Notes under the pieces: generated by a model
The model's input: only the letters and a program-made list of their open reading frames with translations
Database searches by the model: none
Told to the model about the DNA's origin: nothing
Shown here: piece after piece, positions 33,265-63,396 of the stretch
Numbering within the stretch: position 1 is the first letter of the stretch
How the letters are laid out: each line of letters begins with the position of its first letter
Made by a program: the position numbers and the translations under genes
From: Eledone cirrhosa
Taxonomy: Eukaryota
Assembly (NCBI GenBank): GCA_964016885.1
Contig: OZ024763.1
Coordinates: forward strand, 18,228,001 to 18,292,000
Reading direction: 5' to 3'
DNA: 64,000 nucleotides

Positions 33265-36200
33265 GAATCGAAAGGGACAAGGCTGTGTGGTTACTAATAA
33301 CAAGTGTTTAGAAAGTAAAGGAAACACAAACATAGAGATAGGCATTTCCCCTCATCAGTTGTCTGCTGTGGGTCTCAGATGTTTCGGCACATTAAAGACA
33401 ATACATCTATCTGAAGTGCGATAATAACTTAGAAAGTTATTAGGCAAAGAAAAGACGAAAAAGAGACGATAGCGAAAAGAGAGAAAAAAAAAAAAAAACA
33501 TGCCGACAGTGGCACATGTATGTAGAGAGGGAGGGAGGGAGAGAGAGAGAGAGAGAGAGATGTTGACATGTACTTACCAGATGCAGAGAGATTCTTCTCA
33601 CAGATTAACCTGGCAGGGGCAATGTCCCCTCGCGACAAAACAGAGGAAGGACAACGCGGCCATCGATGTAATGAACTCATCATACCTGGAATAAATTAGG
33701 AAAGGTAAATTTAATTTATTTCTCACGAGTGTATATAGAGAAAAGGACCACATTAGATAATTGGATTGGTGTTACCCAGTGATAATTACAACTTTTAATT
33801 ACTTTAAAAAATACTCACACACACACACACACACATATATATATACATATAGACAATATGCCCCCACACCCTCCCACTGCAAAGTGGTCGTGTAGGCGCC
33901 ACAGCAAAAAAGCACCCAGCACTCACTGTAAATCAGCTGTAGAAATCAAGCCAAAATCAGTTCCTGTATGAGCAAGGCATGGTCAGCCGACCAGACACTG
34001 CCCACAACAGGACAACCCGTCTAACCCATGCTAGTGTGGAAGAACGGACGTAAAACGGTGATGATGATGATGATGATATATATATATATATATACATACA
34101 TATGTAAAGTGGTCGTGATGGTGACACGACAAAAAGTACCCAGCACACACTGTAAAGTGGTCGTGCAAAAGAAATGGCAAAAAGCACCGTCCACACGGTA
34201 AATGTGGTTGCTGCTAGGAAGGGCATCCAGCTGTAGAAAACCAGCCAGAAACTGTCCTATATGAGTGAGACATGGTCACACAACCGAACTTGCCATGCAA
34301 GTGTGGAAAAAACAACAATGATAATTTGATAATATGATAATAATGAAATTATTGTGTACAGTACTGAGGTGCACTACAACTCATCAAAGGTGCATGTATA
34401 GTACATAGAATAATTGTTTCTACTTTTGGCACAAGGCCAGCAATTATCCCATTACATTACTGGTACTTTATTTTATCGACCCGTAAGGATGAAAGGCAAA
34501 GTTAACCTCGGTGGGATTTGAACTCAGACCATAAAGGGCCGTAACTCTTTGCTGCAAAGCATGGCGTCCGACCCTCTACCGATATAATCTACAAATGTCA
34601 GGAAAGTGAACAGTCTGTGAGTCATGATATACACACAGATCCATGCATGCGTGTGTATGGAGGGGGGGGGGGGGGGATATCGGGTATAGCGTTGACGAAT
34701 TTCATGAAGCATGGAGGTTTTAAAGGATACAATGGAGGCACATGGCTTAGTGGTTAGAGCATTGGCCTTGCAATCGAAAGGTTGTGAGTTCAATCCTCAG
34801 ACCGGGTGATGTGTTGTTTCCTTGAGCAAGACACTTTATTTCACATTGCTCCAGTTTACTCAGCTGTAGAAATGAGATGATAGGGACTGGGGTCCATATC
34901 ATTCCACTGCAAAGTGGTCGTGGAGGTGCCACGGCAAAAAAGCACCCAGCACTCACTGTAAATGAGGTTGGTGTTAGGAAGGGCATCCAGCTGTAGAAAT
35001 CAAGCCAGTATCAGTTCCCGTCCCACCCTTGCAAGCAGGGAAAAGCGGACGTAAAATGAAATGATGATGATGATGATGAAATGAATGGTGATGATACACA
35101 GAATACATAGAAAAAAAGAATAACTTAACTTACTGGATTTAGACGTATGAAAGGATTTTCCGAGGTTAATGCTGTCCATTTTGAGACCGAGAATTTTATC
35201 TGATATACTGGCATGGCGGTCATCTGTTAGTGACCGAGATAATGGAGAGGAAGCAGGGGTGGAGAATCTAGAGGTATTGAAATAATTCAGGGAACTGTTG
35301 GCAGAGAAACACCTCTTGTGAGGGGAAGAATACGAGAACATGTTGAGTGAGGAGGGGCTGCAGGATTTACGGAACCGGGAAGACTCCGATGCTCGGCTGA
35401 GAGAACCGAAGCTTGGAGTGTCCATATGGCTCCCGGAAGAGAATGCCGGGAAGTTCGTGTGGACAGAGAGTGGACTCAATGATGGCTTCCTGACAGGGAA
35501 ACCGGCTAGTGAAGCAGTGCTCTTGCTCCTTTGTAGAGGGTGCACTGGTGAGTAGAGAGGCTTGCTACGGAGTAATGGCGATGTGGAAAATGCATTGTAA
35601 GAGGAACCAACAGAAGAGTTGGCTGTGTGGAAGCTCTTCACAGAGCCTAGTTTTGGAGAACTACATGAAGAATCGGAGAGTGAAGGCTGCGATGTCTGTG
35701 ATGCAAAACTGTCAGAATATCTGAAAATATAGAAGAAAAAACATCCATTTACTACATACATTGGCATATAAGTCTAAATATATGCAGGTGTGTGTGTGTG
35801 TGTGTGTGTAAGTATATACATGTCTGTGTGTGTGTGTGTAAGTATATACTAGTGTGTGTGTGTAAGTATATATATACTAGTGTGTGTGTGTGTGTGTAAA
35901 TATATACATGTGTCTGTGTGTGTGTAAATATATACATGTGTCTGTGTGTGTGTGTGTAAGTATATACATGTGTGTGTGTGTGTAAGTATATACTAGTGTG
36001 TGTGTGTGTAAGTATATACTAGTGTGTGTGTAAGAATATATACTAGTGTGTGTGTGTGTGTGTATACATGTGTCTGTGTGTGTGTGTGTAAGTATATACA
36101 TGTGTGTATGTGCGTGTGTAAGTAAATATATATATGTATCTCTGTGTGTGTGTATCTAAGTATATGTTTGTGTGGGTGAGCGTATCTAAGTATATATGCA

Positions 36201-36923
36201 TGTGTTTCTGTTTGTGTAAGTCTATGCATGTGTCTGTGTGTGTGTGTGTGTAAGTCTACACATGTGTCTGTGTGTGTGTATAAGTCTACACATGTGTCTG
36301 TGTGTGTCTGTAAGTCTATACATGTGTCTGTGTGTGTGTGTAAGTCTATACATGTGTCTGTGTGTGTGTATAAGTCTACACATGTGTCTGTGTGTGTGTG
36401 TGTCTGTAAGTCTACACATGTGTGTGTGTGTGTGTGTCTGTAAGTCTATACATGTATGTCTGTGTGTGTGTGTGTCTGTAAGTCTATACATGTGTCTGTG
36501 TGTGTGTGTAAGTCTATACATGTGTCTGTGTGTGTGTGTGTATAATTCTACACATGTGTCTGTGTGTGTGTGTGTGTCTGTAAGTCTACACATGTGTGTG
36601 TGTGTGTGCGTCTGTAAGTCTATACATGTGTGTCTGTGTGTGTGTGTAAGTCTATACATGTGTCTGTGTGTGTGTGTGTATAATTCTACACATGTGTCTG
36701 TGTGTGTGTGTGTGTCTGTAAGTCTACACATGTGTGTGTGTGTGTGTGTCTGTAAGTCTATACATGTGTGTCTGTGTGTGTGTGTAAGTCTATACATGTG
36801 TCTGTGTGTGTGTGTGTGTCTGTAAGTCTATACATGTGTGTGTGTGTGTGTCTGTAAGTCTATACATGTGTGTCTGTAAGTCTATACATGTGTGTGTGTG
36901 TGTGTCTGTAAGTCTATACATGT

Positions 36924-36968
<45 letters not shown>

Positions 36969-39900
36969 TGTAAGTCTATACATGTGTGTGTGTCTGTAAG
37001 TCTATACATGTGTGTGTGTGTGTGTCTGTAAATCTATACATGTGTCTGTGTGTGTAAGTCTATACATGTTTGTCTGTGTGTCTGTAAGTCTATACATGTG
37101 TGTGTGTGTAAGTCTATACATGTGTGTGTGTGTCTGTGTGTCTGTAAGTCTATACATGTGTGTGTGTGTAAGTCTATACATGTTTGTCTGTGTGTCTGTA
37201 AGTCTATACATGTTTGTCTGTGTGTCTGTAAGTCTATACATGTGTGTGTGTGTAAGTCTATACATGTGTGTGTGTGTCTGTGTGTCTGTAAGTCTATACA
37301 TGTGTGTGTGTAAGTCTATACATGTTTGTCTGTGTGTCTGTAAGTCTATACATGTGTGTGTGTGTAAGTCTATACATGTGTGTGTGTGTCTGTGTGTCTG
37401 TAAGTCTATACATGTGTGTGTGTAAGTCTATACATGTTTGTCTGTGTGTCTGTAAGTCTATACATGTGTGTGTGTGTAAGTCTATACATGTTTGTCTGTG
37501 TGTCTGTAAGTCTATACATGTGTGTGTGTGTAAGTCTATACATGTGTGTGTGTCTGTGTGTCTGTAAGTCTATACATGTGTGTGTGTGTAAGTCTATACA
37601 TGTTTGTCTGTGTGTCTGTAAGTCTATACATGTGTGTGTGTGTAAGTCTATACATGTGTGTGTGTGTCTGTGTGTCTGTAAGTCTATACATGTGTGTGTG
37701 TGTGTAAGTCTATACATGTTTGTCTGTGTGTCTGTAAGTCTATACATGTGTGTGTGTGTAAGTCTATACATGTGTGTGTGTGTCTGTGTGTCTGTAAGTC
37801 TATACATGTGTGTGTGTGTAAGTCGATACATGTTTGTCTGTGTGTCTGTAAGTCTATACATGTGTGTGTGTGTAAGTCTATACATGTGTGTGTGTGTCTG
37901 TGTGTCTGTAAGTCTATACATGTGTGTGTGTGTAAGTCTATACATGTTTGTCTGTGTGTCTGTAAGTCTATACATGTGTGTGTGTGTGTAAGTCTATACA
38001 TGTTTGTCTGTGTGTCTGTAAGTCTATACATGTGTGTGTGTGTGTAAGTCTATACATGTTTGTCTGTGTGTCTGTAAGTCTATACATGTGTGTGTGTGTA
38101 AGTCTATACATGTGTGTGTGTGTCTGTGTGTCTGTAAGTCTATACATGTTTGTCTGTGTGTCTGTAAGTCTATACATGTTTGTGTGTGTGTGTAAGTCTA
38201 TACATGTGTCTGTGTGTGTGTGTCTGTAAGTCTATACATGTGTGTGTGTCTGTAAGTCTATACATGTGTGTGTGTGTGTGTCTGTAAATCTATACATGTG
38301 TCTGTGTGTGTGTAAGTCTATACATGTGTCTGTGTGTCTGTAAGTCTATACATGTGTCTGTGTGTGTGTGTGTGTGTAAGTCTATACTATGTCTGTGTCT
38401 GTGAACAGAGAGATTTGAAAATGAGAGCCGACTTACTCAAAGTCCTGTTGGTGGTGGTACGTCACCCTGGTCCGGAGGAGGCAGAAGCCTGTAGAGGCAG
38501 TGTTGACAACGTGACAGCCACAGTGGAGGATGGCAATCATGGTAGAAGTGGTAGCTACATCAGTGAGGAACATTAAACTGAGGACATTGAGCAGGAGCCA
38601 GATGAAAGCATCAACCACATCACCAACATATAAACTGTAAAGTGGGGACCAGAAACATCAGACATTATAATTGTTTCTACTATAGGCACAAGGCCAGCAA
38701 TTATCCCAGTGTATTACTGGTACTTTATATTATCGACCCCGTAAGGATGAAAGGCAAAGTCAACCTCGGCGGGATTTGAACTCAGAATGGCAAGGGCCGT
38801 AACTCTATGCCAATCCACCGCCCTTAACTGTTTCTACTATTGGCACAAGGCCAGCAATTATCCCAGTGTATTACTGGTACTTTATATTATCGACCCCGTA
38901 AGGATGAAAGGCAAAGTCAACCTCGGCGGGATTTGAACTCAGAATGGCAAGGGCCGTAACTCTATGCCAATCCACCGCCCTTAACTGTTTCTACTATAGG
39001 CACAAGGCCAGCAATTATCCCAGTGTATTACTGGTACTTTATATTATCGACCCCGTAAGGATGAAAGGCAAAGTCAACCTCGGCGGGATTTGAACTCAGA
39101 ATGGCAAGGGCCGTAACTCTATGCCAATCCACCGCCCTTAACTGTTTCTACTATTGGCACAAGGCCAGCAATTATCCCAGTACATTACTGGTAGTTTATA
39201 TTATCGACCCCGTAAGGATGAAAGGCAAAGTCAACCTCGGCAGGATTTGAACTCAGAATGGCAAGGGCCGTAACTCTATGCGTCAAAGCATGGCGTCCGA
39301 CCTTCTACTGATACTGCCAATCCACCGCCCTTAACTGTTTCTACTTTTGGCACAAGGCCAGCAATTATCCCAGTACATTACTGGTACTTTATTTTATCGA
39401 CCCCGTAAGGATGAAAGGCAAAGTTAACCTCGGCGGGATTTGGCGGTGAATTGGCAGTATCGGAAGAGGGTCGGACGCCATGCTTTGATGCATAGAGATA
39501 CGGCCCTTGCCATTCTGAGTTCAACAGACATTATAATGAATTGCAAGTAGCATTAACATGGTGTACGGCATAATAGGGGTGTATAAGAAAGCATATACTA
39601 TGTATCTATCTATGTATGGCTTAGTGGTTAGTTAGAGTATTGGGCTTGCAATCAGTTGTGAGTTCAATTCTCAGACTGGGTGATGTATTGTGTCCTTGAG
39701 CAAGACACTTTATTTCACATTGTTCCAGTTTACTCAGCTGTAGAAATGGGATGATAGGGACTGGGGTCCATATCATTCCACTGCAAAGTGGTCGTGGAGG
39801 TGCCACGGCAAAAAAGCACCCAGGACTCACTGTAAATGAGGTTGGTGTCAGGAAGGGCATCCAGCTGTAGAAATCAAGCCAGAATCAGTTCCCGTCCCAC

Positions 39901-41166
39901 CCTTGCAAGCAGGGAAAAGTGGACGTATGATGATGATAATGATATATAAACGGAAAAAATGAAACAAAATTTCATTTCTCACTCTTAGTACGGCTGTTAC
40001 TTAAATTTAAGTATGTATACGTACATACATATATGTATACAGACGTACAGTAGTATGCATATATATATACATACATGCACACATATATATATGTACGTAT
40101 GGATTCACCGAACATTTATTATATTGCTCGGTGTGTTTGTAAACAAACATCCCGAATTAAGCCGTACAGTGTCTAGCAACCATCGTTGCTCATTTGTTCA
40201 ACACTGACAAAGGAACGCTGTACTAGTTTCAAGCTTATTAGCTATCGTCAGCAATGTATACCTTCCTGCCAGATGATTGAACGTCTGAAAGTATATACTT
40301 TCCTTATGCATATTAATGGCTGAGCAGCCTAATTTGCATATCGAGTGAGTTAATCGGCCGGGCGCACAGAAAACGATAAACGGAAAAAATGAAACGAAAT
40401 TTCATTTCGCACTCTTAGTACAGCTGTTACTTAAATATAAGTATGTATACATACATATATGCATACAGACGTACAGTAGTATGTATATATATATACATAC
40501 ATGCACACATATATATATGTACGTATGGATTCACCGAACATTTATTATAAGGCTCGGTCTGTTTGTAAACAAACATCCCAAATTAAGCCGTACAGTGTCT
40601 AGCAACAATCGTTGCTCATTTGTTCAACACTGACAAAGGAACGCTGTACTAGTTTCAAGCTTATTAGCTATCGTCAGCAACGTATACCTTCCTGCCAGAT
40701 GATTGAACGTCTGAAAGTATATACTTTCCTTATGCATATTAACGGCTGAGCAGCCTAATTTGCATATCGTATACATACTTATATTTAAGTAACAGCCGTA
40801 CTAAGAGTGAGAAATGAAATTTTGTTTCACTTTTTCCGTTTATCGTTTTCGGTGCGCCCGGCCGATTAACTCACTCGATATGCAAATTAGGCTGCTCAGC
40901 CGTTAATATGCATAAGGAAAGTATATACTTTCAGACGTTCAATCATCTGGCAGGAAGGTATACTTTGCGGACGATAGCTAATATGCTTGAAACTAGTACA
41001 GCGTTCCTTTGTCAGTGTTGAACAAATGAGCAACGATGGTTGCTAGACACTGTACGGCTTAATTCGGGATGTTTGTTTACAAACACACAGAGCATTATAA
41101 TAAATGTTCGTACATATATATATGTGTGCATGTATGTATATATATATATACATACTACTATACATA

Positions 41167-41197
<31 letters not shown>

Positions 41198-44100
41198 CAA
41201 AATAAATCCGTTGAGTTAAAAACTCACAATACTCCCTTATAATCAAATTAGCTCATGGAAAAAATCCAAACCCTTTATAACACAGATATATATCATCATC
41301 ATCATCATCATCATATAACGTCCATCTTCCACGCTAGCATGGGGTAGACGGTTTTCTTCCATATGATGCGGGAGTGGTCGGGAGACCGTGTCTTGCTCTT
41401 ACGAAAGTGTCTCTGGCAGGTTTTCTACGGCCAGATGCCCTCCCTAACACCAACCACCTTTACAGTTCAAAACATAATGTCGGTTTATATAGAGAAAAGG
41501 ACCACATTAGATTGGTGTTACTGCAGTGATAATTACAACTTTAAAAAATACTCACACACACACACATATATATTTATATTTATCCTTAATTTATCCTTTT
41601 AATTAAGTTCTGTGAACTGTACTATCTTTAGTGAATAGATTCTTCACCTTTGCGGTTTTGTATCCCTTATGATTTGAACACACATATATATATATGCGTG
41701 TTGTTCTCTCTTTACTGCGTTACATATATATATATACATATCACCGTCATCATCATCATCGTTTAACGTCTATCTTCCACGCTAGCATGGGTTTAGATGA
41801 GAGTTGTCCCACTTGAGGCAAGATTGGTCGGGTGACCGTGTCTCACTCGTATAGGACTGTCTAGCAGGTTTTCTATGGCTGGATGCCCTTCCTAACACCA
41901 ACAACATTTACAGTGTGGACTGAGAACTTTTTACCATGTTACCTACACAGCCACATTACAGCGTGGACTGTGTGTTATTTTGTTGTGACACCTACACGAT
42001 TTCGATCTCGATCGCATTAGTTTGGACTGGATGGTGTGGTATATATATATATATATATATGCAAAAGGAAATCAGAAATAACAAAACAAACAACACAGTA
42101 CAATGCAGAAATATATTAATTTTACACTTGATATAGTAGGAAAAAAGTCTTAACGTTTCAGACTCTAGTCCTTCATAAAAAAATATAATGAGAGAAGACA
42201 AGAGGGGAGAGACAGCTGAACAGAGATAGACAGAGAAAATAAATACAGACAGACAACTAGACATATAGCTAGATAGATATTTCTTACCTTACTTTGCCGA
42301 GAAATAAAAACTTTGATGCTAAACAGAAGAAGAGACCAGATATAGCAATGGGAGAAATATTCCTGTTAAGGATCTGCCAGACTTTTACAAGCCTCACAGG
42401 CGGTGCCATTGTAGCTATATAATCAGAATTGATCTGACAGACGTGTAAAATAAGGAGAGTCACAGCGGAGAGAAAACTGAATATCTCTAGAACTGGAGGA
42501 AGACGATATTGAAAACCTGTCAACATCGACATCTGAAAAGAAATACACAGCAGAAATAGTACAGATGTTTTCACTATAATATATTGCATATTACGACAGT
42601 CTTTAACCCTTTAGCATTTACACTACTCTATATATACTATTGTATTTTCACAGTAAAGGCTTTACCTCACATAATATTTACATTACTCTATATTTACTAT
42701 TGTATTTTCACAGTAAAGGCTTTACCTCACATAATATCTCACATAACATTTACCTTAATCTATATTTACTATTGTATTTTCACAGTAAAGGCTTTACCTC
42801 ACATAATATCTCACATAACATTTACATTACTCTATATTTACTATTGTATTTTCACAGTAAAGGCTTTACCTCACATAATATCTCACATAACATTTACATT
42901 ACTCTATATTTACTATTGTATTTTCACAGTAAAGGCTTTACCTCACATAACATTTACATTACTCTATATATACTATTGTATTTTCACAGTAAAGGCTTTA
43001 CGTCACATAATATCTCACATAACATTTACATTACTCTATATATACTATTGTATTTTCACAGTAAAGGCTTTACCTCACATAATTATCTCACATAACATTT
43101 ACATTACTCTATATTTACTATTGTATTTTCACAGTAAAGGCTTTACCTCACATAATATCTCACATAACATTTACATTACTCTATATATACTATTGTATTT
43201 TCACAGTAAAGGCTTTACCTCACATAATTATCTCACATAACATTTACATTACTCTATATTTACTATTGTATTTTCACAGTAAAGGCTTTACTTCACATAA
43301 TATCTCACATAACCTTTACATTACTCTATATATACTATTGTATTTTCATGGTAAAGGTTTTACCTCACATAATATCTCACATAACATTTACATTACTCTA
43401 TATATACTATTGTATTTTCATGGTAAAGGTTTTACCTCACATAACATTTACATTACTCTATATATACTATTGTATTTTCACAGTAAAGGCTTTACCTCAC
43501 ATAATATCTCACATAACATTTACATTACTCTATATTTACTATTGTATTTTCACAGTAAAGGCTTTACCTCACATAACATTTACATTACTCTATATATACT
43601 ATTGTATTTTCACAGTAAAGGCTTTACGTCACATAATATCTCACATAACATTTACATTACTCTATATATACTATTGTATTTTCACAGTAAAGGCTTTACC
43701 TCACATAATTATCTCACATAACATTTACATTACTCTATATATACTATTGTATTTTCACAGTAAAGGCTTTACCTCACATAATTATCTCACATAACATTTA
43801 CATTACTCTATATTTACTATTGTATTTTCACAGTAAAGGCTTTACTTCACATAATATCTCACATAACCTTTACATTACTCTATATATACTATTGTATTTT
43901 CATGGTAAAGGTTTTACCTCACATAATATCTCACATAACATTTACATTACTCTATATATACTATTGTATTTTCATGGTAAAGGTTTTACCTCACATAATA
44001 TCTCACATAACATTTACATTACTCTATATATACTATTGTATTTTCACAGTAAAGGCTTTACCTCACATAATATCTCACATAACATTTACATTACTCTATA

Positions 44101-47100
44101 TTTACTATTGTATTTTCACAGTAAAGGCTTTACCTCACATAACATTTACATTACTCTATATATACTATTGTATTTTCACAGTAAAGGCTTTACGTCACAT
44201 AATATCTCACATAACATTTACATTACTCTATATATACTATTGTATTTTCACAGTAAAGGCTTTACCTCACATAATTATCTCACATAACATTTACATTACT
44301 CTATATTTACTATTGTATTTTCACAGTAAAGGCTTTACCTCACATAATATCTCACATAACATTTACATTACTCTATATATACTATTGTATTTTCACAGTA
44401 AAGGCTTTACTTCACATAATTATCTCACATAACATTTACATTACTCTATATTTACTATTGTATTTTCACAGTAAAGGCTTTACCTCACATAATATCTCAC
44501 ATAACCTTTACATTACTCTATATATACTATTGTATTTTCATGGTAAAGGTTTTACCTCACATAATATCTCACATAACATTTACATTACTCTATATATACT
44601 ATTGTATTTTCACAGTAAAGGCTTTACCTCACATAATTACCTATGAGATTTTGATATTCATTTTGAGAAAAATACTGTAACATCAGGATGAACGGCCAGT
44701 TACAGCCAGTTTGAACAGAAAGAGGTGAGAGAATTCTGGCCAGATATGGCTGGTTTGAATGCTAAAGGGTTAATGTAAAGAATGGTGTGCTCATGTGAAA
44801 AGATGATACAAAATAGGTTATAAGATAGGATGAAGACCCTTAAAAGACAAAAAGAAGTTGCCAACAGCTGCTATGAGGAATCAAACCCCATATCTCCCTG
44901 ATACCGGCATCTGGAAGGTATAGGGGTTCAATTCCTTATAGCAGCTGTTGGCAACTTCTTTTTCCATCTTGTAACTATTTAGCATCTAAACCAGCCATAT
45001 CCAGCCAGAATTCTCTCAATTCATGCTGTTCAAACTGGCCACACATACTGATGTTAAGGTATTGTTCTTAAAATAAATAATTGTTTCTCCTTTTGGCACA
45101 AGGCCAGCAATAACCCAGTGTATTACTGGTACTTTATTTTATCGACCCCGTAAGGATGAAAGGCAAAGTTAACCTCGGCGGGATTTGAACTCAGATCATA
45201 AAGGGACGTAACTCTATGCTTCAAAGCATGGCGTCCGACTCTCTACCGATTCTGCCAATCCACTAAAATAAATAATAACATCATCAAAATCTCATTGATT
45301 CAATATTATGTGAGGTAAAGCCTTTACTGTGAAAATACAACAGTATATATAGAGTAATGTAAATGTTATGTGAGATATTATGTGAGGTAAAGCCTTTACT
45401 GTGAAAATACAATAGTATATATAGAGTAATGTAAATGTTATGTGAGATATTATGTGAGGTAAAGCCTTTACTGTGAAAATACAATAGTAAATATAGAGTA
45501 ATGTAAATGTTATGTGAGATATTATGTGAGGTAAAGCCTTTACTGTGAAAATACAATAGTAAATATAGAGTAATGTAAATGTTATGTGAGATATTATGTG
45601 AGGTAAAGCCTTTACTGTGAAAATACAATAGTATATATAGAGTAATGTAAATGTTATGTGAGATATTATGTGAGGTAAAGCCTTTACCATGAAAATACAA
45701 TAGTATATATAGAGTAATGTAAATGTTATGTGAGATATTATGTGAGGTAAAGCCTTTACTGTGGAAATATAATAGTAAATATAGAGTAATGTAAATGTTA
45801 TGTGAGATATTATGTGAGGTAAAGCCTTTACTGTGAAAATGCAACAGTATATATAGAGTAATGTAAATGTTATGTGAGATATTATGTGAGGTAAAGCCTT
45901 TACTGTGAAAATACAATAGTATATATAGAGTAATGTAAATGTTATGTGAGATATTATGTGAGGTAAAGCCTTTACTGTGAAAATACAATAGTAAATATAG
46001 AGTAATGTAAATGTTATGCGAGATATTATGTGAGGTAAAGCCTTTACTGTGAAAATACAATAGTATATATAGAGTAATGTAAATGTTATGTGAGATATTA
46101 TGTGAGATTAAGCCTTTACTGTGAAAATGCAACAGTATATATAGAGTAATGTAAATGTTATGCGAGATATTATGTGAGGTAAAGCCTTTACTGTGAAAAT
46201 ACAATAGTATATATAGAGTAATGTAAATGTTATGTGAGATATTATGTGAGATTAAGCCTTTACTGTGAAAATGCAACAGTATATATAGAGTAATGTAAAG
46301 GATTAAGGGTTTTACTGGAAAAATACAATAATATATAGAGTAATGTGAAGGGTTAAGGGTTTTACTATGAAAATACAATAGTATATATAGAAAAGATCCC
46401 ATAACTCCTTGTGGAGTCATAGTAGCACTGTCATACGGTGTGTCTAGGGTACTTTTAAACCTGGTGGAGCCAAAACCTCTCCAGGTCTGAACACAGCCAA
46501 TTTTTTCTATAGAGGAATAATCGACCCCAGTACTGGACTGGTACTTTTTTTTTATCAACCTCGAAAGGGTGAAAGGCAAAGTTGACCGTGGCGAGATATG
46601 AACTCGGGCCGCACAATGAGGTGGGACGAATACCGTAAAGCATTCTATCTGACGTCTTAACGACGCTGCCATTCCACTGCCTATTAAATATAGAGTAATG
46701 TAAATGGTTTTATTGAGAAAATACAACAGTATATAGAGAGTAATGTTAACGGTTAGAAGTCTTACACTGAACATACAATAGTATATATAAAGTAATGTTA
46801 AGGATTTTACTGCGAAAATACAACAGTATATATTGAGTAATGTAAAGGATTAAGGGTTTTACTGCGAAAATACAATATATATTGAGTAATGTAAAGGATT
46901 AAAGGTTTTACTGCGAAAATACAACAGTATATATTGAGTAATGTAAAGGATTAAGGGTTTTACTGCGAAAATACAACAGTATATATTGAGTAATGTAAAG
47001 GATTAAGAGTTTTACTGCGAAAATACAACAGTATATATTGAGTAATGTAAAGGATTAAGGGTTTTACTGCGAAAATACAACAATATATATTGAGTAATGT

Positions 47101-48919
47101 AAAGGATTAAGGGTTTTACTGCGAAAATACAACAGTATATATAGAGTAATGTAAAGGATTAAGGGTTTTACTGCGAAAATACAACAGTATATATTGAGTA
47201 ATGTAAAGGATTAAGGGTTTTACTGCGAAAATACAACAGTATATATTGAGTAATGTAAAGGATTAAGGGTTTTACTGCGAAAATACAACAGTATATATAG
47301 AGTAATGTAAAGGATTAAGGGTCTTCACCCTATTTTATAAGCTATATTCTAGCATCTCAGTGCGAATGAGGCCATCATTCTTTAGGTTATAAACAAAGTG
47401 TGAGATTACCTGAGAAGTAGAGTTAGAAAATGTAGAAGCAGTGGAAGAGGCAGGAGACAAATGGCCGCTGCTGACAGTTTGAGGGTATTTCATTCTCAAA
47501 AACACATCAAGACGTTCCAACTCCTGCTGAACGTAGAGTTTACACTTGTAACAGAGGTTGTAGATCTTCTCCAGGTGTTCTTTATAGTCGTTCACTTCAT
47601 TGTTGTAGTTGGACTAAAGAAAAACAGCAGTGGAAACAGAATATAATAATAATTGTTTCTACTTTTAGGCACAAGGCCAGCAATTACCCCAGTGCATTAC
47701 TGGTACTTTATTTTATCGACCCCGTAAGGATGAAAGGCAAAGTCAACCTCGGCGGGATTTGAACTCAGATCGTAAAGGGACGTAACTATGCTGGAAAGCA
47801 TGGCGTCCAACCCTCTGCCGATACTGCCAATCCACCGATAATAATAATTGTTTCTACTTTTGGCACAAGGCCAGTAATTTCCCAGTACATTACTGGTACT
47901 TTATTTTATCAACCCCGTAAGGATGAAAGGCAAAGTTAAGCTCGGCGGGATTTGAACTCGGATCCACCGATAATAATAATGATTTCTAGTATAGGCCCAA
48001 GGCCAGTAATTTTGGTGAGGAGAAAGTCGGTTAAATCAACCCCAGTGCATTACTGGTACTTTATTTTATCGACTCTGTAAGGATGAAAGGCAAAGTTAAC
48101 CTCGGTGGGATTTGAACTCAGGACGCAAAGGGCCGCAACTCTATGCTGCAAAGCATGGTGTCCGACCCTCTACCGATACTGCCAATCCTCCAAAGCAGGA
48201 AAATACAAGACTTACCTCAACAAACGGCCTAAAGACGGCCAACTGTTGTACTTTAAGAAGCTGCCTCTCATTACAGGCGGAACAGAGACCGTTTGATAAG
48301 GGAACCATCTTTTGTTTGGAACAGGAGATTGGGTAGTTAAGTTCTGTTGACCATTGGGCAGGTATTGGTTTGTTGTAATCTCCATCCTACAAACACACAA
48401 TAATAATAATAAAGGTTTATGATTTAGGCACAAGACCAACAATTTGGGGGGAGGGGAACATCGATTAAATTGACCCCATCTTACCAACACGGAAAAGTTG
48501 ATGTAAAAATGATGATATATATATATGCCATGTACATCCAGTTTACAATATGTATACAGTATCACTGACTGTCATAAGTGACTAAAAGGGTTATTGCCAG
48601 GAAAGGCATTTTAATGTAAAACATTGCCTCAAAAAGTCTCATCTAACCCATGTCAGCATGGAAAAGTAAACATAAAAACAATATTATGTACATGTGTCTC
48701 AGTTGCCAATATAAGCTTGTTTTTATTGACTTATATCGAGACAGACAAATTGTATTCACTTTAATTAGTTTATTTCATTAATAGCTGACTGTCTGTTGCA
48801 ATGCAAACAGGTTTTGTGTTTATCATATATTTTAATGTATTTAACTGCTCGGAAATGCCCCTTTCCTGGAGCTTAATTATTGTAAAGGACTGAGAGCTTA
48901 TTCTCAAAATATTATATAG

Positions 48920-48951
<32 letters not shown>

Positions 48952-49149
48952 TTGTTTACTTGTCTCACTCGCTTTACGCGTTTTAATTGTCCTAATAACT
49001 TATTTTAGTTATTATTGCGCCAACGTGAGGTATATGATTTTTAATGCAATGAAATACCTATGACCGTTGGTAAATCACTGATGAGGGACTCATTTTATAA
49101 CATGTTATCCATGTGCAACCATGCAGTATTCTTCTCCCCATTTTTTCAC

Positions 49150-49182
<33 letters not shown>

Positions 49183-49894
49183 GGTTGGCATTAGGAAGGG
49201 CATCCAGCTGTAGAAACCAAGCCAGAAACAATCCTGTATGAGCAAAACATGGTTCACTTGATCTGACTTGTCTCAACAGGATAACTCATCTAACCCATGC
49301 TTGCATGCAAAAATAGATGATACATAGATATGGAGGCACATGGCTTAGTGGTTAGAGCATTGGCTTTGCAATCGAAAGGTTGTGAGTTCAATTCTCAGAC
49401 CGGGTGATGTGTTGTTTCCTTGAGCAAGACACTTTATTTCACATTGCTCCAGTTTACTCAGCTGTAGAAATGAGATGATAGGGACTGGGGTCCCTATCAT
49501 TCCACTGCAAAGTGGTCGTGGAGGTGCCACGGGAAAAAAGCACCCAGCACTCACTGTAAAGTGGACGTGTAGGCGCCACGGAAAAAAAAAGCACCCAGTT
49601 GGTGTTAGGAAGAGCATCCAGCTGTAGAAATCAAGCCAGAATCAGTTCCCGTCCCCCCTTGCAAGCAGGGTAAAGCGGACATATGATGATGATGATGATA
49701 CATACACACACATGTATATATATATTGAAATAAAAGTTTGGTATAAATATGTAAGGGCAAGAGCACTCAGTCCATAGGATGAGTTTAGTATAAATAATTA
49801 CAAGTGACATATACGGGTATTAAGCTTCGTTGGTTATACACCCCAAATCATAACCCAACAAAACTTAAGTACCTTTAGATGTCATTGTTGTAAC

Positions 49895-49925
<31 letters not shown>

Positions 49926-52749
49926 GGAAAAATTAGCTTTTAAATCATTTTTAATTCGTTATACATGTTTCATATATAATTCTCTACATATATTTGAGCT
50001 TTGTATATATATATATATATACACCGTAAATGTGGTTGGTGTTAGGAAGGGTATCCAACCGTAGAAAACCTGCCAGACAGTCCTATACGAGAGAGACGAC
50101 CAATCTTGCCTCAAGTGGGATAACTCCCGTCTAAACCCATGCTAGCGTGGAAGATAGACGTTAAACAATGATGATGATGATAGACACACGTATGTATTCA
50201 TATAGACACACACTCACATTGTGTGTATCCCATACAACTGTAAAACATTGCCTCAAAGAGTCCCGTCCAGCCCATGCCAACAAAAGAATGGTGATGCCGA
50301 TGATGATTCTTCATCATCTTCGTTTAACGTCCATCTTCCACGCTAGCATGGGTTAGACGGGAGTTGTCCCACTTGAGGCAAGGTAAGTCGGGTGACTGTG
50401 TCTCGCTCATATAGGACTATCTGGCAGGTTTTCTACGGCTGGATGCCCTTCCTAACACCAACCACATTTACAGTGTGGAACTGGGAACTTTTTACTGTGT
50501 TTACCCACACAGCCACATTACAGCGTGGACTGTGTGTTTTTACCGTGTTACCTACACGGCCACATTACAGCGTGGACTGTGTGTTTTTACCGTGTTACCT
50601 ACACGGCCACATTACAGCGTGGACTGTGTGTTTTTACCGTGTTACCTACACGGCTACATTACAGCGTGGACTGTGTGTTTTTACCGTGTTACCTACACGG
50701 CCACATTACAGCGTGGACTGTGTGTTTTTACCGTGTTACCTACACGGCCACATTACAGCGTGGACTGTGTGTTTTTACCGTGTTACCTACACGGCCACAT
50801 TACAGCGTGGACTGTGTGTTTTTACCGTGTTACCTACACGGCCACATTACAGCGTGGACTGTGTGTTTTTTTGTCGTGACACCTACACGATCTCAATCTC
50901 ATTTATTTGGACTGGATGTTGTGGTACCAACGTTACAGAGAGAGAGTGGTGTTGGTGGGAGTGGGAGGATAAGGTAGGGGTAGTGGATTGGGGTGTATAT
51001 TTGGTTAAGAGGTACCTACTGACTGTAGGTTTCGCTTTGTACATAGGCAAGGAGGGTCTTCTGTATTACTGTGTAGCGCCAAAGATCTCGGTCCAGTGAC
51101 ATTGTCTTAGAGAGGTGCAAGTGTGTAAGGTCGGAATTTATCAGATCGTTCCAGGTTTTTCTGGGTCTACCTACTCCGTAACTAGCATCAATTTTGATCA
51201 CCCTGCACTTTTTTATATGCGCATCACGTGGCCATACCAACATACTCTTCTCTCAAGTAAATCTTACCGTTTTGAATCCATTGTACTGTTCACAGTAGGG
51301 ACAATCCCAACAATTGCGGTTTCCAAAGGGGACAGTGACTTTTTTACCACAAAACCAACAAACAACTCCAACGGGGAACTTGACCCTTAAAAATAAACAA
51401 AAAAGCAATAGGATTAATTCATTTAATGTGTGTATCTTGGTAAGTGCCCAGTCCACCTTGTAAAGTAGTCATTTTTGGAACCACGACATAAAGCACCTAG
51501 TCCACCCAGTAAAGTAGTTGTTTTGTAGCCATGACAAAAAGCACCCAATCCACACTGTAAAGTGGTTGTGTTGGTGCCACAAGCAAAAGCACCCAATCCA
51601 CACTGTAAAGCTGGTGCCACAAGCAAAAGCACCCAGTCAAGTGTTTGTGTTGTTTACACAATAAAACACACCCACTGTAAAGTGGTCATGGTGGTGACAA
51701 CAAAATGCCCCAGTCCACACTGTAAAGTGTCATGTTGGTTCCAAGACAAAAAGCTCCCAATCCACACTGCAAAGTGGTTGTGTAGGTGCCACAATAAAAA
51801 TAGCGCCCAGCTCACACTGTAAATGTGGTTGGTGTAAGAAAGGGCATCCAGCTGTGGAAACCAAGCCATAGACTCGCATAGATCAATGCCTTGCAAGTGA
51901 AATTTGGTAGACAGACATTACAGAAGCCCGTCGTGTTTGTGTGTGTGTGTATATATATATATATATACACACATAGCATGGTAGTGGTTAAGTTACTACT
52001 ATATATATATATATAAAACAAAGAAAGTGTGGTAAGATACCAGGTGGGCCATAACACACCAGAGTACTCAATACTTGGAGTAGTAGAGTGGGTAATAGGA
52101 AAAGAGTCAAGACCCCGACGGCTGAGCTCAGCCGTTGGGATCCAGTCTCTTTATATATATATATATATATATACTATATATATAGTATAATTAAAGTTTC
52201 ATACACTTTACTTGTATGCGCGACTTTAGGTTTTGGGGTCCAGTTATGGCCACCACTGGATCCCGAAATTTAAGGAACCACATACATGATAAGTGTATGA
52301 AACTTTATTTATATTAAATAAACTCTCTTGCAATAGATTGGGTATTATTTTCCTTGGCTTTTTATCTCCGTATATCCGACATAAATATATATATATATAT
52401 ATATATATGTAGATAAATCTACCAAAAGTTTACGGTAGTGTCCAATCCGTATCATTGTGATATGGATAATGGACAAGAGAAAGAGCTCAACTATTTGTAT
52501 ATGGAGTTATAAAGTCATACATATATATGTATATACATAAATATAAAATTTACACACATATACAATACAAAAATAAGAATATTTCCGTGAAAATAGGAGC
52601 AAATTATGTAGATAAATCTACCAAAAGTTTACGGTAGTGTCCAATCCGTATTCTAACACATATATGTCCTAGAAATGATCGTAAAATAATGAACTTTTTT
52701 TGTTTAATATAAGGAACTGTTTCTTTGTTTATTCATTATTTTTTTAATA

Positions 52750-52787
<38 letters not shown>

Positions 52788-53025
52788 ATGAGTTGACGGA
52801 CCCAGCATATTTATCAATGTCAGGACCGGTTGTACATCAGCGTACTCCATGGGGAATGTAAGATACATTCCCAGAGTATAGTTATTCGCTTCAATACAAC
52901 ACACGTAAAACGGGTGCCTATAATATATATATATGTATTTGCATTATGTATGTATATATCTAAAGCAGGGAAAAGCGGGCGTAAAATGATGATGATACAT
53001 GTGTGTGTGTATATATATGTAAATG

Positions 53026-53063
<38 letters not shown>

Positions 53064-53100
53064 TATATGTATGCGTGTGTGTATATACATGTAAATATGG

Positions 53101-53131
<31 letters not shown>

Positions 53132-53755
53132 TGTGTCTGTATGCGTCCGTGTCTGTTTACGTTTGTCTTTATATCCTGTATTTTAGTGGATCGACAAAGA
53201 CAGATCAATAAATAAAGCACCAAGATCAATTTGATGGGATTAAATCCCTTAAAATGTGACCACACTCCAGCATGATCGCAGTCAAATGACTGAAAGATAA
53301 GAACGTCCCAATACAAATGTCTCATGCGGTCCGTTCGTGTTGTTTTAAGGTGTTTATTATTTTTACAAAAACACTTGAGAGAATAAAAATATTTCAGCAT
53401 AATTTTTGTTTTATTCTCTCACATGAGACAATATTTAACGATAAATAGCAAAATATTAACATTAAAATGAAGCTTAATTTAATCTACAAGCAATCATTTG
53501 TAGTGTTGGTCTTAACACGACCTCGACACACGACAACACGTGTTGGCGCCAATTTGAAAAAAAAAATCAGAAATTGATAAATAAGTCAAAATCGAAGAGA
53601 ATATATCGATCAAATATTTCAACTGAAATGAAGTTTCAACAGCGATTGCCTTACCTAATTAGCTTAAATATTACGAGAGTACAACCAAAGGCAGCACTGC
53701 CGATAAGAAAGGCGGTCACCGACTGCAAATATATAAAATACTCCATTGCAGACAT
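29026..53755 (-). CDS. TMEM201: TMEM201 / Samp1 / Ima1-like inner nuclear membrane protein, 10 coding exons, 2172 nt CDS (~723 aa)
   Basis: Manual splicing of exons 53655-53755, 51268-51385, 48216-48386, 47410-47613, 42288-42532, 38437-38634, 35134-35720, 33578-33685, 31939-32193 and 29026-29210. All introns are GT-AG with matching phases. The protein has an N-terminal hydrophobic segment, an Ima1-type Zn-finger region with four CxxC (CWFC, CPYC, CSAC, CYKC) and '[25 protein letters not shown]', central TM segments, a Ser-rich region and a C-terminal TM helix. Confidence 0.93.
29894..30071. mobile_element. Tc1/pogo-like MITE (TA-CCGTATTTCC...GGAAATACGA-TA)
   Basis: Imperfect terminal inverted repeats with TA ends and an internal hairpin. 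Confidence 0.65.
31939..32193 (-). CDS. TMEM201: TMEM201 exon 9
   Basis: aatag| and |gtaagt; 255 nt open frame; phase 1-1. Confidence 0.83.
33578..33685 (-). CDS. TMEM201: TMEM201 exon 8 ([10 protein letters not shown]...DIAPARL...)
   Basis: ttccag| and |gtaagt; phase 1-1. Confidence 0.85.
35134..35720 (-). CDS. TMEM201: TMEM201 exon 7 (Ser/Pro-rich nucleoplasmic region)
   Basis: 587-nt open frame; ttttcag| and |gtaagt; phase 2-1. Confidence 0.9.
35788..38400. repeat. (TG)n-based minisatellite with TAAGTCTATACATG core (TMEM201 intron 6)
   Basis: Dozens of core copies separated by variable TG tracts. Confidence 0.95.
38437..38634 (-). CDS. TMEM201: TMEM201 exon 6 ([22 protein letters not shown]...)
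   Basis: ttacag| and |gtaagt; hydrophobic; phase 2-2. Confidence 0.88.
38670..39525 (-). repeat. Tandem array of five SINE-A copies (157-bp period, three with the same 36-bp deletion) plus an inverted head
   Basis: Starts at 38672, 38829, 38986, 39143 and 39336. Confidence 0.88.
39947..41165 (-). mobile_element. Hammerhead-bearing ~426-bp element: two tandem copies plus one inverted copy (TMEM201 intron 5)
   Basis: Direct repeats with 426-bp HHR-to-HHR spacing, inversion junction ~40769, (TA)n at the right flank. Confidence 0.85.
40641..40683 (-). ncRNA. Minimal type I hammerhead (copies: 40215-40257(-); core-mutated CGGACGA 40962-41004(+))
   Basis: ACGTTG-CTGACGA-t-AGCT-aata-AGCT-t-GAAA-CTAG-TA-CAGCGT; palindromic stem III ACTAGT; GUA triplet. 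Confidence 0.82.
42288..42532 (-). CDS. TMEM201: TMEM201 exon 5 (transmembrane segments)
   Basis: ttttcag|ATG acceptor, two hydrophobic stretches, AG|gtaaga donor in phase 2. Confidence 0.88.
42603..44773 (+). mobile_element. piggyBac-like MITE inflated to ~2.2 kb by an internal 60/72-bp satellite
   Basis: TTAACCCTTTAGCATT at 42603 and GCTAAAGGGTTAA at 44761-44773 bracket the array. Confidence 0.85.
44850..44962. repeat. ~110-bp fold-back hairpin (MITE-like)
   Basis: AAAAGAAGTTGCCAACAGCTGCTAT...ATAGCAGCTGTTGGCAACTTCTTTT. Confidence 0.8.
44975..46357 (-). mobile_element. Opposite-orientation copy of the satellite-inflated MITE (72-bp units; SINE-A inside)
   Basis: Reverse complement of the 42.6-44.6 kb units. 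Confidence 0.82.
46690..47325 (-). repeat. ~53-bp variant satellite of the same MITE end
   Basis: gagtaatgtaaaggattaagggttttactgcgaaaatacaacagtatatatt, about 10 copies. Confidence 0.88.
47410..47613 (-). CDS. TMEM201: TMEM201 exon 4 ([25 protein letters not shown]...)
   Basis: Fourth CxxC; tttag| and |gtaatc; 204 nt. Confidence 0.92.
48216..48386 (-). CDS. TMEM201: TMEM201 exon 3 ([12 protein letters not shown]...[24 protein letters not shown])
   Basis: Conserved [11 protein letters not shown] motif; gtag| and |gtaagt; 171 nt, phase 0-0. Confidence 0.95.
50513..50880. repeat. 47-bp minisatellite x8 inside a SINE/RTE-tail element
   Basis: ccacattacagcgtggactgtgtgtttttaccgtgttacctacacgg. Confidence 0.93.
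50995..51261 (-). mobile_element. RTE 3' fragment starting ~7 nt downstream of the exon 2 donor
   Basis: Homologous to 21598-21880 ([22 protein letters not shown]). Confidence 0.85.
51268..51385 (-). CDS. TMEM201: TMEM201 exon 2 ([12 protein letters not shown]...[12 protein letters not shown])
   Basis: Ima1 N-terminal CxxC motifs; ttaag| acceptor and |gtaaga donor. Confidence 0.95.
52184..52350. repeat. Fold-back element (TAAAGTTTCATACACTT...AAGTGTATGAAACTTTA); the same element at 10375-11230 is interrupted by MITE/SINE insertions
   Basis: Shared arms and 3' flank aaataaactctcttg.aatagattg. Confidence 0.7.
53655..53755 (-). CDS. TMEM201: TMEM201 exon 1 ([33 protein letters not shown])
   Basis: ATG at 53755, hydrophobic leader, donor AG|gtaagg in phase 2, matching exon 2. 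Confidence 0.85.
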
Positions 53756-55235: not shown

Positions 55236-55728
55236 ATATATATGTGTGTGTATGTGTATGTGTGTGTGTCCTTGCAGACGTAAAATGATGATGATATATA
55301 TTAGTATTACATTACAGCTTCGGATAATATGGTAGAGAGACAATATTCAAGAAATTAATGTGTTTGGATTGTCAAAGAATTGTAGGAATTTGGTTGCATT
55401 GTTTCCTGTAACACCATAAATGGAAGAATGTTATTAATAGCAGATCACCATGTAGACTAACAATAGAGAACAAATATTGTGAATAAGGCTCAAACAATGG
55501 GATATATATATATATTTTTTTTTTTTGGATCAATCGACTTTCGTCAAAACGGACCTAGGAAACAATGTTTCCATTGGTCTTTCCAATTACTATTACTATC
55601 TATCGGTCGCAACTCCAGGTAGAAGGAGCAACGAGAAATAAATTGTCTTGCTCAAGGACATAACGCATTGCCCAGTCCAGGAATCGAACTCACAACCTCA
55701 AGATTGTGAATCCAATTCTCTAACCACT

Positions 55729-56531
55729 CATTTTGTTCAACACTGACAAAGGAACGATGAACTAGTTTCAAGCTTATTAGCTATCGTCAGCATCGTATAA
55801 CTTCCTGTCAAATGATTGAACGTTTGAAAGTATATACTTTCCTTATGCATATTAACGGCTGAGTAGCCTAATTTGCATATCGAGTGAGTTAGGCGGCCGG
55901 GCATACCGAAAACGATAAATGGAAAAAATTAAATTTCATTTCTCACTCTTAATACGGCTAATACTCAAATATAAGTATGTATACGTACATGCATATATGT
56001 ATACAGACGTACAGTATTATGTATATATATACATACATGCACACATATATATATGTACGTATGGGTTTACCGAACATTTATTATAATGCTCGGTTTGTTT
56101 GTAAACAAACAGCCCGAATTATTAGCCGTACAGTGTTCAGCATGCAAATCACTCAATATGCAAATTAGGCTGCTCAGCCGTTAATATGCATAAGGAAAGT
56201 ATATACTTTCAAACATTCAATCAACTGACAGGAAGGTATACGGTGCTGATGACAGCTAATAAGCTAGAAACAGTTCATCGTTCCTTTGTCAGTGTTGAAC
56301 AAAATGGCAACGATGGTTGCTGAACACTGTACGGCTATAATTCAGGCTGTTTGTTTACAAACAAACCGAGCATTATAATAACTGTTTGGTAAACCCATAC
56401 GTACATATATATATATGTGTGTGCATGTATGTATGTATATACATACTACTGTACGTCTGTATACATACTTACATTTGAGTGAGTATCAGCCGTAGTAAGA
56501 GTGAGAAATAAAATTTCATTTTTTCCATTTA
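55729..56531. mobile_element. Diverged second locus of the 426-bp hammerhead element (direct plus inverted copy)
   Basis: Clear homology to 39947-41165; HHRs at 55754-55796(-) and 56240-56281(+). Confidence 0.83.
55754..55796 (-). ncRNA. Minimal type I hammerhead
   Basis: ACGATG-CTGACGA-t-AGCTaataAGCT-t-GAAA-CTAG-TT-CATCGT, with a fully Watson-Crick 6-bp stem I. Confidence 0.82.
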
Positions 56532-57195
56532 TATATATATATATATATAATGAAACAATTGTTAATACTGTAAATAAAACCCTTTTTGTACAGCCGACCA
56601 TGTTGTTCTTCACTCTGTCACTATATATATATATATAAACCCCAGATTGGAAAAAGGGTGAGCACTGATGTACATGGGACACAAACCCACATCTTTGGCT
56701 ATCATGAACACTGTTTTTATAACTCCAACTATTAATTTACTCAAAAATACGGTGGAAGCTCTATTTCACTATCTAATTTTCAAATTATTCACTGTTTGTA
56801 AAAAAAACTAATTTTCAAACCAACACTAAGCTCTGTATCTTATATATCATCATCTTCGTTTAATGTCCATCTTCCACGCTAGCATGAGTTAGACGGGAGT
56901 TGTCCCACTTGAGGCAAGGTTGGTCGGGCGACCGTATCTCGTTCATATAGGACTGCCTGGCAGCTTTTCTATGGCTGGATGCCCTTCCTAACACCAACCA
57001 CGTTTACAGTGTGGAACTGGCAACTTTTTACCGTGTTACCTACACGGCCACATTACAGCGTGGACTGTGTGTTTTTTGTCATGATACCTACACGATCTCG
57101 ATCTCATTTATCTCATTTATTTGGACTGGATGTTGTGGTACCAACTTTACAGAGAGGGGGTGGCATTCATCTACACCTAGTTTTCTAAGAGCCCA

Positions 57196-60629: not shown

Positions 60630-60784
60630 TAATATATAATTAAATTATTGGGTACAGTGCTCAGGTGTACTACAAAAGAAATGCTTACAGCACCTAGGTT
60701 TCCAAGCAGTCGCCCATCTAAGTGCTAACTAGACTCGACGTTGCTTCACTTCGGTGATCGGACGAGAACCGGTGTTTCCAGCGT
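60630..60784 (-). pseudogene. 5'-truncated 5S rRNA-derived copy (60679-60784) fused to a retroposon 3' tail
   Basis: ACACCGGTTCTCGTCCGATCACCGAAGTGAAGC...GGTGCTGTAAGCATTT, then TTGTAGTACACCTGAGCACTGTACCCAATAATT, a tail also seen at 30198-30280(+) and 34330-34411(-). Confidence 0.85.
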
Positions 60785-61765
60785 ACGAAAGAAAAAATCG
60801 CAAAACATTTTTGTTAGAAATCAAATTAGTCACTAGAGGTCACTACATGTATTTTATTAGCCGTTATCCTATAACAGATTGCTTTTTCTGCAAGAAGTAG
60901 CAGCCATATTGCATGAAGAAATCGTAGTTGCTAGTTATCTTCCTTGAGTATTTATTTTTTTGTGATGACATTTTTAACCACTAGACGTCATGACATGTAT
61001 TTTACTGTCCGTTGTCCTATAACAGATCGATGTCGTTGTTAGAAATAACAACCAAATTCACTTCACATTACATTCTACTATCGTGAAAAAACAAAGACAC
61101 ATTGGATGATGTATTTCTGAAACAGGTCAATAGTTGAGGTTGAACACAGATGTTCGACCCGTAGGCTATCTTTATATATAAATATTTTCCTGACAATATA
61201 TATATGTATATATGAAATATAAATAAATGTTATCAGCGAGAGGTGACATTTCGCAGAAAATGATTACTTGTGGATAGATCAATAGTAGTTATTGCTTTGG
61301 ACATTTCTATCGGCTTTCCATCAATACTTTTCTTGTCGTTTAAAGAACATGCGTTCCACAGACGGGAGAACCACATAATAGAATTGTTTAAATAAAACTG
61401 AGAATAATATACAAACCCCCACCACCCCCATCGTTACCCCCTGTGGCACATGTCTGGACAATGTGGATCAATGAGAAGGCTCTCCGAAGTACAGAACCCC
61501 AGATGCAAGCCTTCTCGTGGTCCCGGCAGATAGAATAGAGAATGTATTATTCCAGAAGATAGTAAGGGGGACGTGTTGAAATAGCCAAACCAACCTCCGA
61601 GTTTCATTTCTGCGGGTGGCCAACTCCCGATATAAACTTTATCCAAAAACAAGGTGGCTTAGGTAACAGTGAAATAGGTGTTGTTAATAGTATGTTTTCT
61701 CGATCAGAGTTAATCTGGGACTAAACAACGAGGAGCCATCTACCTGGTCACCCAAACCCAAATAA

Positions 61766-63127: not shown

Positions 63128-63396
63128 TTTTTGTCTTGTCTTGTATTGTCTTACTTCCTTTTTTTGGTTCGTCTCACACTATTTTTTTAAATAAATAAGT
63201 AAATAAATAAATAAACAACAACAACAGAAACAATCGAAAAGTGATCGATAATTTCTTTTTTGGTCCTTCCCACACTAACTTACAAAATTAATCGAAAGAA
63301 AATCGAGAAAATGGTTAGGAACAATAAACTGAACTAACGAAGTTATTGGTCGATTGATTTAAGTAACAATATGATTGATATAAGTATTGGTTCACA

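Follow-up and report, generated by a model that had tools for sequence, protein, structure and literature searches.

Two hammerhead motifs arranged in tandem within an intron, on the sense strand of a housekeeping gene, raise the question of whether host transcription turns such a locus into a source of ribozyme-made RNA circles—or whether the motifs belong to an ordinary insertion of an abundant repeat. We addressed this question in a stretch of 64,000 nucleotides of Eledone cirrhosa DNA (hereafter, the window), in which tblastn with the proteins of O. vulgaris and O. bimaculoides placed 10 coding exons of TMEM201 from 53755 to 29035. Identity in the largest exon amounts to 66% with O. vulgaris and 64% with O. 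bimaculoides, and Pfam Ima1_N matches fall on two TMEM201 exons on the minus strand (two of the 16 frames tested). Both motifs lie on the minus strand within 42287-38635, i.e., in the sense orientation of TMEM201 intron 5 as claimed in the first-pass annotation of this DNA, with the number 5 resting on a count of coding exons, which would change if a non-coding first exon had escaped detection. The coordinates of all features are collected in Table 1.

Table 1. Features of the window with their coordinates and strand; unit positions are counted from the predicted hammerhead cleavage site.
Feature	Positions	Strand	Description
TMEM201 coding span	29035..53755	-	10 exons, octopod orthologue
TMEM201 intron hosting insertion A	38635..42287 (42287-38635 in sense)	-	GT...AG, between coding exons 5 and 6
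Insertion A, direct arm	39946..40769	-	1.93 tandem units (unit positions 304-426, 1-426, 1-271); 3′ end at 39946 into TA repeats
Insertion A, inverted arm	40769..41159	+	Unit positions 197-426, 1-about 168; head-to-head with the direct arm
Unit junction 271/272, family-wide 3′ terminus	40375..40376	-	Both direct arms end there, as do 43 contigs
Insertion B, inverted arm	55727..56142	-	Unit positions 43-426, 1-32
Insertion B, direct arm	56146..56532	+	Unit positions 296-426, 1-271, ending in (TA)n
Type I hammerhead motif, first transcribed	40641..40683	-	Core intact, 6-bp stem I, U-U plus 4-bp stem II, ACTAGT stem III, GUA; predicted cut after 40647
Second type I hammerhead motif	40215..40257	-	Core intact; private G-to-A at 40255 breaking a stem I pair; predicted cut after 40221
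Hammerhead motif, insertion A inverted arm	40962..41004	+	U4-to-G core change, breaks in stem I and stem II; antisense to the pre-mRNA
Hammerhead motif, insertion B inverted arm	55754..55796	-	Core intact, GUU triplet, stem I with 6 Watson-Crick pairs
Decayed hammerhead motif, insertion B direct arm	56240..56281	+	Stem III short by 1 nt

The earlier description of two minus-strand motifs 426 nt apart, with CTGACGA/GAAA cores, an ACTAGT stem III and a GUA triplet, proved accurate in every element. CTGACGA starts at 40677 and 40251 on the minus strand and is followed in both sense motifs by T-AGCT-AATA-AGCT-T, then GAAA, ACTAGT and the GUA triplet, and the adjacent inverted copy reported with a mutated CGGACGA core is present at 40968 on the plus strand. 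The core (C3-U4-G5-A6-N7-G8-A9, G12-A13-A14, A15.1-U16.1 and H17) is complete in both sense motifs and in 55754-55796; the full type I core was not found in the inverted copy (40962-41004). Helix I forms six of six pairs in 40641-40683 and five of six in 40215-40257, where an A-C mismatch occupies position 40255. The window holds five hammerhead motifs in two insertions, termed A and B here, and the palindromic helix III ACTAGT (dimer type) occurs in four of these five copies. Stem II opens at 10.1/11.1 with U-U in four copies, both sense motifs among them, and with C-A in the remaining one, the canonical G10.1-C11.1 being found in none. According to the sources consulted, the GUA triplet is known in active natural hammerheads (PMC1636495), and U10.1-U11.1 is found in nature as the best tolerated mismatch at this place (PMC3088659). 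By shape, the sense motifs are type I hammerhead ribozymes, with putative self-cleavage.

A CAG stands directly 5′ of the extended stem I at 40694-40692 and 40268-40266 (minus strand). The D. virilis Penelope is described as having an intron end at the 5′ side of helix I (PMC4209133), and by analogy the CAG is a possible candidate for a splice acceptor on the host sense strand.

Alternatively, the motif might have arisen by chance within a satellite or DNA-transposon repeat and never have been a ribozyme. Consistent with such an origin, Rfam gave no hammerhead match, either at gathering score (5S rRNA alone) or among 84 matches at E up to 10 (with microRNA-like chance matches on the AT-rich part); the isolated motifs fold no more stably than shuffled sequences (z -0.46 to 0.08), and the 10.1/11.1 pair is non-canonical. 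However, the pattern CTGANGA-N10-30-GAAACTAGT has three matches in the 64-kb window against none in each of 100 shuffles—the third match, 55761-55790, lying beyond those listed in the first-pass annotation—and the motif combines a full core with three stems in type I order and a palindromic stem III. Moreover, 97% of cells pair across the five window copies, as compared with 31-42% when the partners are slid; one stem I pair varies among the copies (U-G, A-U and G-U), with covariation that is weak among these five (its score was reached by 48 of 500 shuffles). Together with the distribution of family variation, restricted to free positions among the rows listed, and an insertion layout of the type seen in Penelope-like elements (PLEs), both detailed below, this evidence makes a chance origin very improbable.

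The 5S rRNA match corresponds to a 5S rRNA-like sequence at 60682-60799 on the minus strand (60.8 bits, Rfam) with many broken pairs, likely a pseudogene or a 5S-derived repeat. Beyond the window, the strict hammerhead pattern had no match in metagenomes and the hammerhead pattern none in prokaryote genomes. A loose pattern had a single metagenome match (L001:930-957), with the canonical G10.1-C11.1 and a long stem III; it was rejected as a relative of the repeat, having no BLASTN match to the window.

Both sense motifs are parts of a tandem repeat unit of 426 nt (426-430 nt), and a second insertion of the same repeat, unmentioned in the first-pass annotation, was found 15 kb from A and about 2 kb upstream of the TMEM201 start codon (insertion B, 55727-56532), differing from A by 7-10%. 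The two insertions have the same build: a partial tandem direct arm set head-to-head with a 5′-truncated inverted arm. Both direct arms stop at unit position 271—that is, 271 nt past the predicted cleavage site—and then run into TA repeats, which mask any target-site duplication. Both inverted arms cross the 271/272 junction, and their outer ends lie away from 271, at unit positions about 168 and 32 in these two whole insertions. In insertion A, the inverted arm is complementary to 40109-40450 over 342 nt and to 40535-40769 over 235 nt, at 97% in either case. Since A and B each carry a motif on both strands, the sense orientation of the motifs in TMEM201 is uninformative.

None of eight reading frames of the unit has a Pfam match under E 0.1, and as judged from the sequence no protein homology is detectable in the 426-nt unit. 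An open frame of 67 aa that spans the motif was considered as a remnant of a PLE ORF and discarded: it has no Pfam match, a single chance match (to a Desulfonema repeat protein) among 1.84 billion proteins and none among 21 candidates. Elsewhere in the window, a Ser/Arg-rich stop-to-stop frame of 314 aa (62234-63178, minus strand) is likewise without a Pfam match. At unit positions 299-304 (40348-40343, minus strand), where both direct arms begin, the unit reads TCACTC. We take this hexamer to resemble an initiator element, and the site is a possible candidate for an internal transcription start.

To gain a view of the repeat family, four of 23 listed public DNA runs were compared with 331 of the unit's 426 nt (40100-40430). 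Run X21 consists of RAD reads, with restriction-site bias, and run X1 of contigs, and the species of the runs may differ from that of the window; runs X4 and X5, which bear other organism labels and contributed nine short contigs each, were excluded from the evidence. The unit was matched by 36,188 of 12,467,656 X21 reads and by 9,067 of 16,517,967 X1 contigs—numbers that are not copy numbers—and on this basis the family is abundant. In 43 X1 contigs, loose (TA)n-like letters precede 40376, i.e., unit position 271, and these contigs form the largest among the loose-end groups listed, beyond which there are 488 further loose-end rows. Thirteen of the 15 joints listed in public DNA connect opposite strands at scattered sites, so inversion looks family-wide, with a possible contribution from library chimeras. 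In six of these 13 joints, a side falls at unit positions 272-310 (P about 0.05, for an interval chosen from A and B and with orientation not given), and in five, a side falls no more than about 20 nt away from the cleavage site (P 0.14). At 40155, 40331, 40334 and 40401, read ends pile up on AATT sites; these pile-ups were rejected as library cuts. At 40193, just past the motif, 10,864 X21 reads and 23 X1 contigs diverge into a related, distinct sequence, which may represent a second large subfamily sharing the hammerhead region.

Variation within the family appears to spare the constrained positions of the hammerhead. Among the 39 variable positions listed, none falls within the 25 constrained hammerhead positions (P 0.04), and the five located within the motif are all among its 18 remaining positions (P about 0.009)—namely the stem I pair sides 40254 and 40218, loop II 40237, N7 40247, and 40255. 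A further 44 variant rows beyond those listed may include core changes, and the phase of the variants is not given, so that the reads do not prove covariation. On the variant rows listed and the pairing across the five window copies, the repeat family keeps its putative ribozyme. The rows listed hold no variant at U10.1-U11.1, which appears fixed in the family.

The repeat displays several of the features by which non-LTR retrozymes are recognized: a non-coding unit, a few hundred nt long and repeated in tandem, that carries a type I hammerhead, a GC content below 45% (0.37 over 40001-42000) and high copy. As described for animal non-LTR retrozymes, including those of Mytilus with 350-390 bp (PMC7229834; 10.64898/2026.07.22.740005), the unit is short, AT-rich, high-copy and tandem, with no detectable protein, and carries one canonical-shaped type I hammerhead (helix I of 6 bp, helix II of 4 bp and a palindromic helix III); the intronic position of insertion A is also frequent in that class, and about 43% of the retrozyme copies in Xenopus are reported to be intronic (10.64898/2026.07.22.740005). 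Unlike the non-LTR retrozymes presented in these sources, the octopod repeat has a cephalopod host and U-U at 10.1/11.1, and instead of forming plain head-to-tail arrays, it is scattered in insertions that have an inverted arm and stop at a fixed 3′ end.

In these last respects, the repeat resembles PLEs. Partial tandems, inverted 5′-truncated copies and a bias towards microsatellites are described for PLEs (10.1101/2021.04.23.441226), as are an end set downstream of the hammerhead instead of at the cut and an AT-rich or (TA)n target (PMC11167929), and the ribozyme is of the dimer type, like the hammerheads of PLE pseudo-LTRs (PMC4209133). Several differences set the repeat apart: the 426-nt unit holds no RT or GIY-YIG ORF, the 30-40-nt one-sided tail of PLEs is not seen in the two insertions, the hammerhead has a canonical rather than a minimal shape, and the 3′ end lies 271 nt past the cut, as compared with about 90 nt in the Anolis PLE (PMC11167929). 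Octopus genomes are reported to contain PLEs (10.1101/2021.04.23.441226), with 31 recently active Penelope-like families described in O. vulgaris (PMC13282606), and non-LTR retrozymes have been argued from vertebrate phylogeny to be non-autonomous PLE derivatives (10.64898/2026.07.22.740005). From these sequence comparisons, the 426-nt repeat is likely a new octopod member of the retrozyme/non-autonomous Penelope-like class.

The route by which such an element reached the intron bears on the role of its ribozyme. In the Anolis PLE, reverse transcription is described as beginning inside the RNA, downstream of the hammerhead, with cleavage dispensable in vitro; hammerhead cleavage is protein-dependent, and the RNA-seq reads reported there do not end at the cut (PMC11167929). 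Instead, the same element could have moved by rolling-circle reverse transcription of ribozyme-made circles, a route that has been proposed for non-LTR retrozymes. Only private changes distinguish the units of insertion A, pointing to near-identity at insertion, both inverted arms cross the 271/272 junction, and mussel retrozymes of 350-390 nt are described as yielding abundant circles (PMC7229834)—all of which favors a circular template. However, the direct arms start at 304 and 296 and six of the 13 joints fall at 272-310, a pattern that a linear RNA with a defined 5′ end fits better, and the joints near the cleavage site (five of 13) carry a P of 0.14. We thus consider the rolling-circle route unlikely.

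The first-pass annotation had also proposed two fates for the intronic RNA, sequestration of the motifs as dsRNA by the inverted copy or cleavage through a host-transcribed dimer. Both were examined by protein-free secondary-structure folding, which ignores helicases, hnRNPs and editing. The inverted arm forms duplexes of -406 kcal/mol with the first unit and -591 kcal/mol with the second. Nascent transcripts were folded from 41115 at seven lengths, five of which hold a whole motif; in four of these five, the first motif has 40 of its 43 nt in duplex with the arm, and in the longest transcript the arm shifts, covering 40 of the 43 nt of the second motif. With 40 of 43 nt of one hammerhead paired at all five lengths, the folding models support sequestration.

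The dimer found no such support. According to this proposal, host transcription would supply the tandem pair, and the resulting dimer would cut twice, free a 426-nt monomer or circle and alter TMEM201 splicing. The two intact sense cores and the palindromic stem III are suited to dimers, the form in which PLE hammerheads are described as acting, slowly (PMC4209133; PMC6765202), and both the GUA triplet (PMC1636495) and U10.1-U11.1 (PMC3088659) are compatible with activity. In the models, however, enforcing the dimer costs about 187 kcal/mol relative to the ensemble of the whole insertion and 14-15 kcal/mol when the arm is left out, and the arm pairs one motif at every length. Additionally, one of the two partners carries a private break in stem I, and changes at the locus are not depleted within the motifs, as described below. 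We give a host-driven circle hardly any weight; for comparison, one of nine predicted dimers of Xenopus retrozymes is reported to cleave in vitro (10.64898/2026.07.22.740005).

A more modest outcome would be a single slow cut, which is possible because 40641-40683 is free in the full-length minimum-energy fold, with stem I at P 0.79 and stem II at P 0.96. When tertiary contacts are left out of the model, adopting the active-like fold costs this motif +7.7 kcal/mol. Freed upon the arm switch, it could cut once, either on its own as a monomer or together with family RNA acting in trans, so that a minor fraction of the transcripts would be nicked and the mRNA hardly affected; canonical-shaped type I monomers can cleave, as described for coral and mussel retrozymes in vitro (PMC7229834). 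Yet the motif would have to escape a 235-bp hairpin (-406 kcal/mol) before splicing, its stem III offers only 1-2 bp, U-U occupies 10.1/11.1, and PLE hammerheads are portrayed as slow or protein-dependent (PMC11167929; PMC4209133). Such a cut appears distinctly improbable.

Long intronic hairpins are typical ADAR substrates, and on the folding models a long dsRNA for ADAR editing would be the most likely RNA-level consequence of insertion A. The editing rate of octopus is reported as the highest of 22 species, with young repeats as the main targets (10.1101/2020.01.19.911685). Intron 4 contains arrays of a 60/72-nt satellite in opposite orientations (42591-44720 and 45159-46100) that form inverted repeats of up to 364 nt at 95-97%; intronic long dsRNA is therefore not peculiar to the hammerhead insertion. 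A 157-nt tandem repeat of about five copies (38667-39442) starts about 30 nt from the exon 6 acceptor, and an extra copy of it lies near 45077-45187.

The TMEM201 copy shows signs of decay. At 40255, the family base, which pairs, is found in 16,076 of 16,813 X21 reads and in 99% of the X1 contig depth, and with 96-99% of the family sequence holding the pairing base, the stem I mismatch of 40215-40257 is private to this copy. Pairwise differences among the three units of insertion A amount to 2.4-3.5%; because all of them are private changes, the units would have been near-identical when inserted. Private decay affects two of the three motifs of insertion A. A calibration quoted in PMC13282606 equates JC 0.09 with 25 million years, and we infer an age of roughly 4 million years for insertion A. 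Changed site-copies amount to four of 129 inside the motifs and 12 of 912 outside (Fisher P 0.13, with little power), and to one of 86 for the two sense copies alone—a comparison in which the locus shows no trace of selection acting on the ribozyme. An exapted, conserved intronic hammerhead was rejected in view of this lack of depletion and of the high-copy family. The copy resembles the conserved single intronic hammerheads of amniotes in lying on the sense strand of a host intron, but those are described as few and conserved (PMC7229834), whereas the TMEM201 copy is young, decaying and derived from a very abundant repeat.

Taken together, the reading that we favor, and consider probable, is that of an abundant octopod 426-nt repeat, likely a non-autonomous PLE/non-LTR retrozyme, likely put into intron TA repeats by a Penelope RT and predicted to be self-masked. 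Its presence in the TMEM201 intron is likely an ordinary insertion, not a gene switch. In the proposed sequence of events, an autonomous Penelope-type protein would start reverse transcription at unit position 271 on uncleaved multi-unit RNA, and the same protein would add the head-to-head inverted copy; the insertion would then decay neutrally, perhaps for a few million years. RNA polymerase would transcribe the inverted arm first, and the 235-bp hairpin would zip over the first hammerhead during its emergence, with strand exchange only swapping which hammerhead is covered. Because one hammerhead would always be covered, the dimer would not form, and the paired cuts needed for a 426-nt monomer or circle would be rare. 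Release of a monomer would require both cuts, one of them across the damaged stem I of 40215-40257, and the intron would be spliced normally.

Building on this interpretation, a more specific proposal is that of a cephalopod retrozyme family fixed for U10.1-U11.1 and moved by Penelope machinery on uncleaved linear RNA, with the inversion acting as a built-in off switch. The integration marks of the family—a fixed 3′ end at 271 nt beyond the cut, head-to-head inversions and a clustering of 5′ ends shortly behind the unit junction—would form part of the same proposal, which we put forward tentatively, as a possibility that falls short of being probable. Among the matches listed for octopus hammerheads, octopus Penelope elements and cephalopod retrozymes, no account of the 426-nt family was found; supplementary repeat libraries or hammerhead surveys may include it.

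Taken singly, the locus is of little weight: the family has many copies, this one is decaying, and its ribozymes are predicted to be masked. In the very remote case that the host-driven scenario were true, it would show a housekeeping gene powering the production of a circle by ribozymes, which would be of genuine interest. The family, on the other hand, can serve to examine by what route non-LTR retrozymes integrate and which purpose their hammerheads have, and its insertion layout matches the view of retrozymes as PLE derivatives drawn from vertebrate phylogeny (10.64898/2026.07.22.740005). Should the tentative proposal of an inverted off switch hold, live ribozymes could sit in introns on either strand while feeding dsRNA to octopus ADAR, and the family would offer direct structural evidence that animal retrozymes travel as Penelope passengers, not via ribozyme-made circles.
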